Of a DNA stretch of 64,000 bases, positions 21,455 to 59,143 are shown piece after piece. This DNA comes from Eledone cirrhosa (Eukaryota), in contig OZ024742.1 in the NCBI GenBank assembly GCA_964016885.1, positions 48,484,001 to 48,548,000 on the forward strand, in the 5' to 3' direction. The translations under genes and the position numbers were made by a program. The notes beneath the pieces were generated by a model. The model saw nothing but the letters and a program-made list of their open reading frames with translations. It made no database searches and was not told the DNA's origin. The number at the start of each line of letters is the position of its first letter. The stretch's first letter is position 1.

Positions 21455-21700
21455 ATATTTAATATAGAAATGGCTTCTACAGTACTAGAATTGTTTCATT
21501 CGAAGGAAATCATGTTGATTTCCTTCGAATGAGACAGTCCTAATCCTGTAGAAGTCATTTCTATGTTAAATATGTATACTCTGCTATGTATTAATTACCT
21601 GGGATACTCATATATTACATAGTCATTCATGTGTAATATGTACATAGCCGTGCGGAATATCACTTACATGAGTTTAATCCTTATGTGGGCGTTCATGTAT
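21455..21700 (+). mobile_element. Small fold-back element (58-bp arms, 3-nt loop, plus tail); same family as 58944-59143
   Basis: 21455-21512 is inverted at 21516-21573. Shares TGATTTC..GAATGA.ACAGT.CTA.TCCTGTAGAA and TATACTCTGCTATGTATT with the 58944 element. Confidence 0.75.
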
Positions 21701-22994
21701 GTATAAATAGTTTAAAGATGATTTGAAATGTTTACTTTCTTCCATACAGATTATTGTGAGTTTCCTCATATGCATCGGTGCTTAAATATATGGATAATGA
21801 TAACTTATCAAGCGTATAATCGTTAACCACATTTATCTCCCAATAAAATTCCAGTCTCAAATAATTTCAGCGATAATGTGTAAAAGCTGTCCAAATCATT
21901 CATTAATCTAAACAGATCCCTCAAAATATTTATTCCATATCTAACTTATTCAGCAACCAATGTTAACGCTAACATATTGGTCCTATCAGATCAATGTGTA
22001 AACTTACATTATGTAAAAACAACATTAATTTAAAATAAATAAATATAAACTACATGCATAAATTACAGCGATAGTATTTGTAATATTTAGTTATGTTGCA
22101 AATAAACACGCTAATGTGAGTCATTTATTCACTGGGTACATTAGATAAGTTTCATAAACATTCTAGTATCAGTAATATCATATTCAACTCCGAACTTTCA
22201 ATTCTTTCTTTTTCTCTATCACCACGAACACATCCACGTCCCTATTAAGTGGGTAGCTATTCTCGTTCAATAATTTACAAAATATTATTCACTAAGGATC
22301 TTGTTAGTGTTTAACAACGTCAGATAACAATTTACATAAATTCCTTCTACAAATTTAACATGTATCCGATAGTAATTAATTGCTAAAATTGGAGTTAGGT
22401 TTTCAAAGTGAAGTGGTTTAATTTGTTAGTTCATATCACCTGGTTGTGCTGAATGATCTGTGACAACAGTTTTTCTCAGTCGTTTACCAAGTGTGATCAC
22501 CGCCAATCTATGTATGTGGTGTCTAAGTAGAAGTGTACATGTTCACAGTATATAGACATTCAAGCCAGATTGAGAAAAGTTAGTATTTTCGGGATATCAA
22601 TGACCAATGCCTTGAAATTGCAAAACAGGTCACGTTCATGATGGCAACACATTCTGATGTCGGTTTACATGTCACCAAGGCTTTCTGCAATATGCATAGC
22701 CTTCCAGGAAGGTAAATATCGCAATCACAAACTCAGGTAGCAAAAGTAGAAGTTGGGTTTAAAATGTTCTTCCATCTGATAATGGTGAACCCAGATCATC
22801 ATATTAAACAATACAGGAAGATGCATTTTGTCATCTCGCTGCAACAGAATTTCTCTTATTTTTTTGCGATACTCTCTAGGTATGTTCTAGTGACACTATC
22901 GACCAAAGCCCTGGCGCGCCAGGATTTCACCAGAAATCTGTTAGTTGGTATTCGGCAGCTGCAAGGTATTGCATGGAATGGGCTCTGTGCAAGT

Positions 22995-23160
22995 GAATGT
23001 CGGACGCTATGCTTTGACGTATAGAGTTACGGCCCTTGCCATTATGAGTTCAAATCCCGCCGAGGTTAACTTTGCCTTTTATCCTTACGGGGTCGATAAA
23101 ATAAAGTACCAGTAATGCACTGGATAATTGCTGGCCTTGTGCCAAAAGTAGAAACAATTA
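22995..23160 (+). mobile_element. tRNA-like SINE copy (5' part degenerate)
   Basis: B-box-like GAGTTCAAATCCCG followed by AACTTTGCCTTT...AAAGTACCAGTAATGCACT...GGCCTTGTGCCAAAAGTAGAAAC, shared with other copies in the window. Confidence 0.8.
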
Positions 23161-26132
23161 TTAATTACGAAAATTACATTTAGTAACACGCGCCAATATC
23201 CTAAGTTCGTTCATGAGTCTCTGACTATAAAGAAAAGTATTGTTGAGTGTAGGCTTCTGCAAACAGAAATGTAACTGTTGCATGGAGGAATACGGATGAA
23301 GACTGGAAACAAATGTAACATCTTGATACAAGTACGTAAGGATGATAAAGGGCAAGAGAAAATATAAAGCATTCTACAAAGAGAGATCGATAATAAAATA
23401 CCAGATAAAAAGATTAATGTAGTCCATCTGTTTGATTAAAACATTAATTGTTGTCTCGGCATAGCTAAAGCTCAGTGACTGAAAATGGTAAAATAATGTT
23501 TCTAATTTAGGTATTCTTTGAGGAGATGGGAAAATCGTGTATTTTGACTCCGTATTGCATTGGTACTAAATTTAACGACTCCGGAATGATGAAAGGTAAA
23601 GTTGAACTCACTAGATTTGAGATCAGAATGTAGAAGGTTGTAATAAATATTGCTAACTATTCTGCCCGACACTCTGCTGTTAAAAAAAATCAAGGGAAGT
23701 GATAACAGTAAAATAATCAAATATTTCAATAATACAGTATGTTTATATGAACACACGTATTAATTAAAAACACAAATATTTTCTAAAATGAGTTTTAAGG
23801 AAACGTAAATATTTGAGACTCTATAAATGTCTTCAGTCGCTATCAACGTATTATATTATGGGCTTATGTTTCATCAATGTCCAAGTTATATATATGTCCT
23901 TGAAGATATATGTGTAATTAATGTTGAAATCTTAAAGCGCCTCCATTCTTGTTGTTGTAATTAGGAAATTTCACTATTTATTTTTCGTTTTATTTCTGAG
24001 ATTTCCATAATCAATAAAAGCCGGCATAAGTTCTTATTTCTACAATTATCATGCATTATAATAGTTCTCTCAATTTCTAATTGACAATTGAAATTTCATT
24101 GCTGTCTTTCTGAAACCACCTGGGGAAATAACTATAGATTTCTCCTAGAATATTAATTGTCTATATCCGTGTTGAGTCCAACGTGCGAATATCATCGATA
24201 ATTTTCTGTAGAAATACGTTACAGAGGTTAAATATCGGTTCGGCTCTTTTCGAAGATAAATTCCAATAATTGTGCTATGATTTCTAACATTGCCATCGGA
24301 TAATTGCAGTTGCGTGCTTTTGGCAAAATAACCTTTTTATAATTAATTTTATGATTTCTTCAAGAGAGCAGGTGTAGTTAGCGCCCATAACTTTTGCATG
24401 ACCTGCAACACTGGTGAAAGAGATATATGAAGTAACCACAATGTGTAGATTGTTCTAACCACTAAGTTTATTCCTATTAGTATCTCAGTTGGAAATCAGC
24501 CATTGCTATCGGGCAACACTACACATAAAAATCACGTGTACTGGTCATTGTCGTATTCCTGGCCGATTATATAAGGTTTAATGAAGAATGCATTTATCAT
24601 TCATTTAAAAACGCAACGAACATTTTGCTATTGTAAAGCACCCAAATAATTGGAAGGAAAAATACCTTTCCTAATACTAGTAGCACAACAACAACAACAA
24701 TAACAACTTCTTCTTCTTCTTCTTCTTCTTCTTCTTCTTCTTCTTTTTCTTCTTTTTCTTCTTCTTCTTCTTCTTCTCACTCTTCCCTCTTATACACAGG
24801 GTATTTATAAAGTTGTTTGTCTTCCAACACCTTTCAAATTCTGGCCCTCGAACGTATTATTCCCCCCTCCCTCTCTCTCTTTCCTTCTCATTCTCACAAT
24901 TTCTTTCTAACTTTCAATATTCTATCACTACAAATATGGACCAGATTTACATTTAACTGCAAGCACCACAGGCACATCGGAATCATTTAAATTTCCTCCT
25001 TTTGTCAATGTTATTATGTTTTCGCTGGTCCTGCATTTTTCACAATACTCAGTTCATCCATAGATCTTCAGAATTTTAGAATTGATTTGCAGCGATCATC
25101 GAAGAAGGTTAACGATTTCACTGGCACCAATATTCAGGACCAGTGAAAATTATAGACACAATCTTTTATTGTGCTCTAAACTAATATCAAACAAATATAT
25201 TTCCATTATTTTACACTGGAAAATCTCATTAAGTACTAAACAAGACAATATTTACCAATCAATCTTCTGTATCTTACTCGCCTAAGTGACCTTGCTCACT
25301 AGAGATTAAAATTTGGAAACACTTCAAATGTATTTCCATATTTGAATATAAAATTCCCATGGCTTAATTCGACGTATGAATGTGTTCATTATGAATATTA
25401 GGTTCTCATAAAGAATTATCAAGACTATTGTGTATTGTAACAATGTAGTGGCGAACCAAGATAGTAAAGCTCATTTAATTCCCCGTTGAATCATTTCACT
25501 TCATTTTCTATTCCTAATTAAAACTCCCGTGTTCAATATACTGAAATATTTTGAAAAACAGGCTTCCACCATAATGCTTATTCAATTACTCACTAAGTAA
25601 ACTAACACAATGTTATGCGTTCCCAAATATGTAAGTGTTACACAGAATAGTCCATTGCTCTTTATCAAGGTTCCATTATATATATATATATATAATAGGA
25701 ATGTAATGTAGCTTAAAATATCAGATTTTAAGTATTTATAAGCGTAGGTGTATTCACATTAGTGCATTGCTGACCATCTAGGTTTAATTGTATATATACG
25801 GAGAGGAATCCGGCTTATAGACACATATCTCATTGTGTGTGAGGATAGACGAGGTGTGAACGATCTTTCAATAGATAGGTGGATATAGTGACAGCTATGC
25901 ATATTTTTAGTCCATAGATCGTAAAGCCACTCTTTCAACATATACACACTCAAAGCGAGTACATACTCTAATACGAGCCCATATGTAATATGCAATTATA
26001 GATTATTTTATGCATAGATATGTTTTGTTTTAACATGATGCTTAAAAGATATTAAACATTTAATTGAGTCCGTGGGCTTCTGCCAGTTGGAATCGAAACT
26101 AGGCACAATAAATTTCAGAAGTGCAATGTAAT

Positions 26133-57678: not shown

Positions 57679-57965
57679 CACACACACACACACACACACA
57701 CACACACACACACACACACATACACACACACATACACACACACATACGCACACACACACACATATATATATATATATATATATATATATATATATATATA
57801 TATATATATATATAGTTATAATTGGGGAGGGTCATATTGTTGTAATAATATTGCCAGAATTAATAACAGAACACACTCACTGTTTGGTTAGTATAACAAT
57901 ATTTGTTTCGACACACGATTTCAAATCAAAAACCTCGCAAAACAAATATATATATATATATATAT

Positions 57966-58900
57966 ATACAAATGAATATATGATAGGGATAAACACTGAT
58001 ACAAGTATACATGTGTTTGCATTGCAAATGACCAAGTTAGCTAGATTGAAAAATACTAATTAAAATAATACGGTTTGCCTGTCTCGATTTAAAATAATAA
58101 ATCAATAAAAACAAACCTATATTGGCAATAGCCATGATACCTGGACAAATTTTGTATCACGGCTATTGCCAATATAGGTTTGTTTTTATTGATTTATTAT
58201 TTTAAATCGAGACAGGCAAACCGTATTATTTTAATTAGTATTTTTCAATCTAGCTAACTTGGTCACTTGCAATGCAAACACATGTATACTTGTATCAGTG
58301 TTTATCCCTATCATATATTCATTTGTATTACACGGCTCAGAAATATTCCTTTCTTTGAGCTATTTAATTGTAAAAGACTATTTGAGTTTATAACTCTATA
58401 TATAATATTCTAGGCTCCATGCGTTGAGCTAAATTTTAGTCCCATAAAACCGGTAGCTATTTTTAGCGACACGAGTATAGGACGTGCTAGATGCTGCGAC
58501 ACATGTGCGTTCAACAACACATTTCTCTCAGTCTTCTTAACTATTTTGAAGTGAAACTTACCAATTTCTGGATACCTGCAGAAGAGCACAGGAATAGGAA
58601 ATTTCACTTAATTGTTGCGAAACAAATTTAAAATTTAAAATATAAAATGTGTCCAGGTATCACCGCTATTGCCAATATTGATTTGTTTTTATTGGTTTAC
58701 TATTTTAAATCGAGAAGGCAAACCGTATTATTTTAATTAGTATTTTTCAATCTAGCTAACTTGGTCATTTGCAATGCAAACACATGTATACTTGTACCAG
58801 TATTTATCTCCCTATCATATATTCATTTGTATTACACGGCTCAGAAATATTATTTTCTTTGAGCTATTTAATTTTACAAGACTATTTGAGTTTATTACTC
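57966..58900 (+). mobile_element. Fold-back plus tandem element (one inverted and two direct copies of a ~250-bp unit)
   Basis: 57966-58140 is inverted at 58154-58328, tail to 58397; direct repeat at 58650-58900; (TA)n and (CT)n flanks. Confidence 0.85.
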
Positions 58901-58943
58901 TCTCTCTCTCTCTATATATATATATATATATATATATATATAT

Positions 58944-59143
58944 AGTTTTAAAATAGATGAGATTCTACAGGACTAGAACTGTTTCATTCTTTAGAAATCA
59001 TCAGGAATCTGATTCCTGATGATTTCTAAAGAATGAAACAGTTCTAGTCCTGTAGAATCTCATCTATTTTAAAACTTTTATACTCTGCTATGTATTGAGT
59101 ACCTTACTTACTGTGGTTACCTCCGATTCAACCCGGAATAACG
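58944..59143 (+). mobile_element. Perfect 133-bp palindrome (66-bp arms, 1-nt spacer) plus tail, with hammerhead core, within (TA)n
   Basis: 58944-59009 / 59011-59076; CTGATGA at 59016, GAAAC at 59035, GTC at 59047. Confidence 0.85.

Follow-up and report, generated by a model that had tools for sequence, protein, structure and literature searches.

In this study, a stretch of 64,000 nucleotides from Eledone cirrhosa (NCBI GenBank assembly GCA_964016885.1, contig OZ024742.1, positions 48,484,001 to 48,548,000 of the forward strand; in the following the window) was analyzed for insertions built from inverted repeats. At seven places the window holds an element with an inverted and a forward arm, the forward arm alone continuing into a tail, and most of these elements lie between microsatellites. 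We read them, with a probability of roughly 70%, as insertions of four Hydra-clade families among the Penelope-like elements (PLEs) and of two hammerhead-bearing repeats, made by a PLE protein that would cut both strands of a TA target and prime a pair of cDNAs on a single RNA, at the end of the tail-less arm (termed S) and at the end of the tail (termed T). The source genome comprises 3.0 Gb and is rich in microsatellites.

Inverted repeats were located by self-comparison of the window and then read directly in the sequence, which confirmed them at all seven places named by the initial annotation. The view that several families share the layout held, with six families at the seven places, because 21455 and 58944 both belong to family A; the others are B (26738), C (38164), D (39538), E (57204) and F (57966). 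For each site the genome was searched, the best 40 candidates were scored and 30 loci were retained. Arm identity among the layouts was 83-99%. The copy at 21455 has aged, with 78% identity to family A, a shortened tail and a broken hammerhead core. At 39538 the layout is present but its arms are unequal, and at 57966 it is present in an element longer than had been described. Microsatellite flanks had been assumed throughout; most are (TA)n, but three sites deviate (left of 38164, at 57676 and right of 21455). All features are collected in Table 1.

Table 1. Insertions of families A-F and their parts in the window (positions of the window; pLTR stands for pseudo-long terminal repeat, RT for reverse transcriptase, ORF for open reading frame and UTR for untranslated region).
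Feature	Position	Strand	Description
Family A, old copy	21455..21600	+	hairpin 21455-21573 after (TA)n 21438-21458; tail ~25-30 nt; decayed hammerhead; right microsatellite absent
Family B, inverted tail-less arm	26738..32109	-	ends at S (unit 6425) on (TA)n 26674-26740; 5′-truncated RT-thumb and GIY-YIG ORF; predicted hammerhead at 26936
Family B, central joint	32110..32130	.	21-nt insert built from short templated duplications
Family B, forward arm	32131..37647	+	unit 1063-6559: ORF remnant to 33665, microsatellite-rich 3′ UTR, pLTR, tail; then (TA)n 37648-37833
Family B, predicted type I hammerhead	37305..37459	+	10-bp stem I, long stem II, palindromic stem III
Family B, 5′-end hot spot	37308	+	unit 6220, A of initiator-like TCATT
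Family B, tail (S to T)	37514..37647	+	134-136 nt; begins with predicted CUC/stem/UU/GAG hairpin ~37519-37597
Family C (putative Hydra-clade PLE end)	38164..38488	+	inverted arm 38164-38277; forward arm 38274-38488; canonical hammerhead core 38294; tail ~102 nt
Family C, flanks			left (TAGA)3; right (TA)n 38489-38558
Family D, inverted tail-less arm (putative Hydra-clade PLE end)	39534..40560	-	1,027 nt; ends on (TA)n 39517-39538
Family D, forward arm	40559..40866	+	308 nt; non-canonical hammerhead core 40601; tail 110 nt; (TA)n from 40866
Family E (retrozyme-like)	57202..57676	-	tail-less arm 57440-57676 on (AC)n; tailed arm 57441-57202 on (TA)n; 440-465-bp tandem unit
Family E, hairpin motif	~57255-57276	-	predicted RNA hairpin
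Family F, inverted tail-less arm	57966..58152	-	on (TA)n 57946-57968; ~500-bp tandem unit
Family F, forward part	58154..58900	+	1.5 units; (CT)n(TA)n after 58898
Family F, hairpin motifs	~58335, ~58415, ~58839	+	~58335 after S; ~58415 after T
Family F, hammerhead fold	58571-58661	+	CAGAAGA core
Family A (putative pLTR of Hydra-clade PLE)	58944..59143	+	hairpin 58944-59076; hammerhead core 59016; 66-nt tail; (TA)n both sides
Family A, hairpin motif	~59083-59099	+	within 66-nt tail

Both outer ends of the insertions are fixed. The tail is present on the forward arm only, and its length is constant within each family genome-wide, as the initial annotation had proposed to check (A 66, B 136, C 102, D 110, E 75 and F 68 nt). 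Exact S junctions were counted genome-wide 1,013 times for B, 167 times for F and 203 times for D, and T junctions of B 4,294 times; reversed patterns, searched genome-wide as controls, gave 0. The enrichment of inverted-arm starts at (TA)n, suggested at the same time, was also found, since (TA)3 borders S in 65/76 arms and T in 138/150 copies, each time compared with a background of 9%, with some queries ending in a few TA letters themselves. For family B, 32 regions were chosen by the tail, which together with the window represent 37 of the 40 matches of the B search. Here, the inverted arm ended at S in 24 regions (21 exactly at unit position 6425) and at T in one, was interrupted or unresolved in three and was missing in four. 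S fell on a single position in 11/14 arms of C, 12/13 of D and 14/16 of F, and was more scattered in A (310-332) and E (351-370). The general folding strength of the tails was unremarkable (z −1.8 to +0.7).

By their sequence features, families A-D are ends or 5′-truncated copies of Hydra-clade PLEs encoding a predicted RT and GIY-YIG endonuclease. Tandem copies of family B provide a 6,559-bp unit with an intact ORF of 813 amino acids, in which the motifs RVRWR (35), DKT (115), FLQFD, YRDD, CNCRNKTNC (CxCX5C; 673) and CRLC...CNH (CxxC/CxH; 771) were identified. Two copies of family A continue past the tail into an ORF start resembling that of B, and the 3.5-kb unit of D and the 4.3-kb spacing of C each contain an interrupted RT and endonuclease ORF; CxCX5C together with DKT or a variant is present in the interrupted ORFs of A, C and D. 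Families A-D show the partial tandem or pLTR arrangement, 5′ truncation, inverted 5′ copy and one-sided tail of PLEs, as well as the insertion into (TA)n. Family B has the full set of RWK-like motif, DKT, CxCX5C linker, CxxC and CxH around the catalytic E/N, and these protein motifs define the Hydra clade in the available text of PMC8557442. The B protein has 118 homologs at E<=1e-20; look-alike proteins, judged from few records, are most frequent in molluscs, and its C-terminal part resembles protein clusters, one of them named GIY-YIG (PF01541 on 23% of its members). Sequence searches of Pfam and PDB gave no match for the ORF of B. Among 66 endonuclease matches in the fetched DNA, at least 14 clusters were distinguished at 70% identity. 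The idea that many separate coding and non-coding RNAs are mobilised thus has to be narrowed, in that A-D are truncated autonomous PLEs and E and F non-coding units. A link to an autonomous PLE exists for A-D, which run into RT/GIY-YIG ORFs, but none was found for E and F in the 1.87 Mb of DNA searched. Several long copies of B, including the one in the window, share internal truncation hot spots at unit positions ~1061-1065 and 1450-1467. Another PLE type, with an ORF starting MTLPKYNN right at S (DKSG, YVDD), occurs at ~38600-38735 of the window and at L413:3473-4270, L430:6263-7664 and L244, and produces the same layout without the hairpin described below. The locus G000:C14:23470159-23470459 (L071) represents an additional family that carries a hammerhead, has inverted partial copies and gave 3,370 first-look candidates.

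Families E and F consist of non-coding tandem units of 442-465 bp and ~500 bp, respectively, with a longest stop-free frame in the dimer of 54 codons in E and 108 codons in F. They carry the same inverted-arm and tail footprint as the PLEs, and dispersed copies with fixed S and T on (TA)n bear out that two of the families are retrozyme-like non-coding units sharing the PLE layout. The description of the families as unrelated in sequence is mostly correct; the tails of E and F, however, align with a score of 45, which none of 500 shuffles reached. The other 14 tail pairs did not exceed shuffles, and no linear similarity was detected among the A-D tails or between these and the E/F tails. An unbroken F array of ~40 units in 20 kb (G000:C11:4478000-4498000; L250, L251) is 92-95% identical to the unit in the window and has a CAGA core. 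A relative of F, termed family G, has a similar tail and ends on (TA)n (L094, L146, L284, L339, L030, L155).

For the origin of the two arms, the initial annotation had proposed fold-back recopying that stops short of the tail. In the version weighed here, a single cDNA started at T turns back on itself and is copied again as far as S, with a bound protein or an endonuclease nick as the stop; with later one-sided deletions added to make the arms unequal, this is close to the self-priming idea in the available text of PMC3846280. To compare it with two independent primings, 90 of the 100 listed S junctions of B, out of 1,013, were used irrespective of their partner. Of these arms 51 were short enough to be resolved and 35 had an adjacent partner, which ended at T in 35/35 cases. 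In family F, 17 of 29 partners ended at T, none at S and four elsewhere, and eight arms had none. Within the 35 B pairs, the inverted arm was more than 10 nt longer in 13, the forward arm was longer in 3 and both were equal within 10 nt in 19, and three forward arms lay entirely inside the tail. At the joints, the arms overlapped by 1-43 nt in 26 pairs, were blunt in two and were separated by 1-17 extra nt in seven. Fold-back from the tail does not fit these data because it cannot yield an inverted arm that is longer than the tailed arm or does not overlap it, a situation also found in the D and E copies of the window. Several B joints at 6220/6220 are zero-loop palindromes, which therefore cannot be formed by fold-back and leave nothing to delete at the 5′ limit, and in L362 and L391 the T-end partner of the S arm comprises only ~10 nt. 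Identical arms, the 19 pairs with inner ends within 10 nt and some joints able to fold with a loop of 3 nt or more would be explained by it. On balance fold-back is probably wrong, and we regard it as unlikely.

The arms of one insertion derive from closely similar templates; counted over 20 arm pairs in 18 insertions, they differed at 13 of 20,202 unmasked sites, compared with 0.4-1.3% between insertions, and 80 of 88 minor alleles were common to both arms. In the reading preferred here, a PLE protein would cut both strands of (TA)n, and two cDNAs would likely be primed on one RNA, one at T and one at S 66-136 nt upstream, one per break end. The tail would be the stretch of RNA between the two starts. 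Both cDNAs would stop independently, often at a probable transcription start just upstream of the hammerhead, and would be joined head to head via short microhomology or a template jump. Twin priming of LINE-1, in which both break ends prime on one RNA and an inversion results, has a variable second start and non-overlapping pieces, whereas here each family has a fixed second start and one stretch is usually present in both arms. For the PLE Poseidon from Anolis, the available text of PMC11167929 describes a protein that nicks and extends both strands, with RT starting at two internal sites bounding the tail and with no need for hammerhead cleavage; the two start sites in vitro also speak against fold-back. 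Beyond the right (TA)n of family C, at 38559-38573, a 13-15-nt inverted copy of its 3′ end was observed, resembling an abortive second priming at T within this microsatellite.

Inner arm ends accumulate at positions with features of the TATA and initiator consensus. In B, 22 of the 51 short arms end at unit 6216-6228, 12 of them exactly at 6220, the A of TCATT. Forward arms of C start at 457-459 in 7/30 cases, 30 nt downstream of a TATA box, at the A in TCACT, and those of A at 260-261 in 14/30 cases, also at TATA+30. The RT would then run off the 5′ end of an RNA starting in the pLTR, through the uncut ribozyme, and leave short hairpins. Only 2/51 short B arms have their 5′ end at the cut site. 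As a separate candidate, identity of S with the ribozyme cut site was rejected, because S lies 22-178 nt downstream of it across families. In family F, arm ends cluster at unit 241-273 around the predicted cut site at 252, which hints at cleaved templates or at stalling of RT at stem I.

Cores of hammerhead ribozymes had been noted in four cases; instead, all six families have a type I hammerhead-like fold with stem I, core, GAAA and cleavage triplet, two of them with non-canonical cores, and these are predicted ribozymes. The calls come from a descriptor of our own, which with a stem I of at least 6 bp gave seven motifs in comparison to 0-3 in 20 shuffles. Among the families searched, Rfam gave no hammerhead match and microsatellite noise only, with none among the 150 matches listed for one scan. 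The motifs of A, B, C and E correspond fully or almost fully to the canonical form. In family A, stem II has a U-U at its base, a feature also described for an axolotl motif in the available text of PMC7229834, and stem I of this family covaries (GATTC/GAATC 26, GCTTC/GAAGC 2). The commonest form of D has G at the cleavage position (17; 44/62 motifs), E shows the core CTGAnGA in 15/16 motifs, and F keeps stems and GTC with the core CAGAAGA in 75/88 and CTGAAGA in 2. A literature search on the CAGA core yielded nothing useful.

A second common element was found next to the start points. Just 3′ of S, a hairpin is predicted in 6/6 families, consisting of CUC, an inner stem, a UU or UC bulge and GAG, and it recurs after T in four of the six (B, D, E and F). 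Counted over distinct sequences, the motif follows S in A 9/11, B 12/12, C 29/35, D 11/12, E 14/27 and F 31/45, and in read-through copies it follows T in B 1/1, D 2/2, E 8/12, F 27/34 and G 2/2. The pair that follows outwards, on which the descriptor sets no condition, reads A-U or G-C in every family except D, compared with 31% in chance hits. In a blind test on layouts from random DNA, the motif followed S in 4/9, with a chance expectation of 1.0% (P ~1e-6); among the five misses, two come from a different type of PLE, the ORF of which begins at S. The hairpin just 3′ of each start would position the RT, plausibly with one subunit of a dimer per hairpin. If so, it would explain how non-coding repeats could borrow the enzyme of a transposon.

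E and F are likely copied in trans by a PLE of Hydra type, because both keep two CUC/GAG hairpins. Alternatively, they could be moved by another PLE clade or a long interspersed nuclear element (LINE), or could multiply mostly by tandem amplification, the hairpin being a convergence or a pLTR relic. The long F arrays, the missing linear similarity between E/F and A-D tails, the failure to find a driver in the 1.87 Mb searched and the other PLE types that make the layout without the motif here (L413, L430) speak for such an origin, while dispersed copies with fixed S and T on (TA)n, the S-T pairing and the motif after both S and T in E and F speak against it, so that we rate it as rather improbable, though slightly less so than fold-back. 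A more general proposal is put forward tentatively, with odds somewhat short of even, namely that Hydra-clade PLEs rely on a portable RNA code in which two CUC/GAG hairpins each place one RT subunit upstream, one RNA feeds both (TA)n break ends, the spacing sets the tail, and retrozymes carry the code without linear similarity. If true, this would be a direct genomic proof of the mobiliser of animal retrozymes together with a named cis signal.

Several points weigh against the reading of two primings at S and T and the role given to the hairpin. Every mechanistic step is deduced from DNA. Genome-wide, S junctions of B reach only 24% of the T junctions (1,013 vs 4,294), and therefore many insertions must have no S arm or a diverged one; 39 of the 90 sampled arms were too long to be resolved. 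Either arm could have been shortened by a one-sided deletion once a cruciform had been resolved, and identical arms could stem from gene conversion. A few joints fit fold-back (a TTC-T-GAA centre; stem-I microhomology in A), T-T insertions exist (L037/L038; 1/32 B regions), and one S-S pair is suggested by junction coordinates. According to the available text of PMC11167929, the start sites used in vitro by the Poseidon protein did not differ between the strands. As to transcription starts, the cluster in A (14/30) is biased by the query start, the TATA+30 rule predicted 395 for D where only 3/21 short arms end at 394-397, and a canonical TATA box is absent in B. The hairpin descriptor was derived from families A-F, the same families that it describes. 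Among the copies in the window, those of C and D and the one at 21455 do not fit it; the motif is absent after T in A (0/1, or 0/2 in another count, old copies) and C (0/1, one base off) and after S in G (0/3, UA bulge), and 5/9 blind layouts lack it. Finally, an autonomous PLE with an E/F-like tail was not found in 1.87 Mb of fetched DNA, with no genome-wide search made; a motif scan matched only E-, F- and G-type sequences, and a looser one gave no driver among the matches listed.

Two other origins of the inverted repeats were considered, together with their density, which was determined with one detector on the 64-kb window and on 20 evenly spaced 10-kb stretches (200 kb). Miniature inverted-repeat transposable elements (MITEs) or foldback elements of DNA transposons, with terminal inverted repeats (TIRs) in TA, would account for short palindromes in TA sites. 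The sampled 200 kb contained nine asymmetric and no symmetric layouts, inner ends vary, neither symmetric TIRs nor a fixed length was found, and copies run into RT/GIY-YIG ORFs or tandem hammerhead units. For A-D the link to RT/GIY-YIG ORFs refutes a MITE origin, and overall we give it practically no weight; asymmetric ends, these ORFs and TA flanks agree with the earlier view of PLE-made insertions into (TA)n. The alternative of assembly or amplification artefacts (fold-back chimeras) draws on the long near-perfect palindromes, a known artefact type, and on the fact that no read spanning a whole hairpin was seen; it is very improbable in view of nucleotide-exact, family-specific ends at hundreds to thousands of loci, of arm identities of 83-99%, as ageing would give, and of contigs from public runs with (AT)n loose ends at 37513 and 37308, one of which runs may be the assembly's own sample. 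Contigs from four of the five public sequencing runs listed contained no joints, and a depth step near 37265-37318 does not represent a copy number; none of the runs listed was of RNA, which has no bearing on expression. The density of the layouts, previously called striking, turned out to be ordinary, with five events in 64 kb compared to 2.9 expected (P(>=5)=0.16; P=0.03 if all seven are counted). Nine layouts per 200 kb roughly extrapolate to 60,000-230,000 long inverted repeats genome-wide, of the order of 10^5.

The layout itself is known PLE biology; the comparisons that follow refer to the parts of each publication that were available. Inverted 5′-truncated copies, tails of 30-40 bp and AT or (TA)n targets are published for PLEs (PMC8557442, PMC3846280). 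Families A-D resemble the Hydra-clade PLEs with C-terminal endonuclease (EN+) of Craig et al. 2021 (PMC8557442) in motifs, hammerheads, (TA)n targets, partial tandems and inverted truncated copy plus tail, but their units are larger (3.5-6.6 kb vs generally <3 kb) and reach thousands of copies, their tails are longer (66-136 nt vs 30-40 nt), and S-T pairing and a hairpin signal are not described in the available text there. With Poseidon (Frangieh et al. 2024, PMC11167929) they share cuts in both strands, two starts bounding the tail, no need for cleavage and a predicted dimer. Poseidon belongs to another clade, however, and starts in an AC-rich stem-loop that is part of its ORF, while the starts found here are located in the 5′ UTR, with a CUC/GAG hairpin 3′ of each; moreover, the two starts occur here almost always as a pair within a single insertion, in contrast to the missing strand difference of Poseidon. 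The metazoan non-LTR retrozymes (Cervera and de la Pena 2020, PMC7229834; PMC7761336; 10.64898/2026.07.22.740005) are, like E and F, non-coding AT-rich tandem units of a few hundred bp, present as monomers and arrays, with type I hammerheads, which in E and F are predicted. Unlike the published retrozymes, E and F carry the inverted-arm and tail footprint of PLEs and a candidate cis motif in common with autonomous PLEs; the words "inverted" and "microsatellite" occur 0 times in the available text of PMC7229834, and the core of F is CAGA. Non-autonomous Chlamys elements such as MRC1 (PMC8557442) are likewise non-coding PLE derivatives with pLTRs and head-to-tail copies, but they belong to another clade, generally lack hammerheads and resemble their drivers linearly at the 3′ end, a similarity missing in E and F.

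PLEs have been proposed as retrozyme drivers by co-occurrence and pLTR phylogeny (PMC7761336, 10.64898/2026.07.22.740005), and according to the review PMC7761336 the driver is not marked by any conserved motif. Neither the footprint on retrozymes nor the hairpin signal was found described in mainly open-access main texts, including the accessible part of PMC8969392. Retrozyme-like repeats with the two-site footprint and a CUC/stem/UU/GAG hairpin common to families without linear homology therefore appear to be new, as do, as variant features, abundant long-tailed Hydra-clade elements and a near-strict S-T pairing on one RNA. With the PLE footprint and a shared candidate RNA signal present in E and F, the question of the retrozyme driver becomes testable. 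The in vitro work on Poseidon left the later steps open, and the thousands of young copies here indicate one start per break end on one RNA. Family B, young and with intact ORFs, is a ready biochemical system, and the abundance of long inverted repeats bears on assembly, repeat annotation and sources of small RNAs.

Apart from families A-F, the window contains further hammerhead-like motifs of other families at 51970-52110 (+), 59420-59475 (-), 39380-39435 (-) and 14880-14925 (+), with a palindromic stem III in those at 51980 and 59468. A hairpin at 15221-15353 (91%) is centred on a short TA run, and flanking layout and CUC/GAG motif are absent there. Decayed LINE-type RT and endonuclease ORFs were detected at 946-2004, 1889-4781, 6157-11661, 18339-20421 and 40838-41791, two of them in inverted orientation with 75% identity. 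In addition, a dispersed repeat of 160-180 bp occurs in four copies (22999-23163, 26129-26312, 43322-43499 and 56045-56229), and a two-copy tandem of 143 bp recurs inverted (45623-45907 and 20832-21320).

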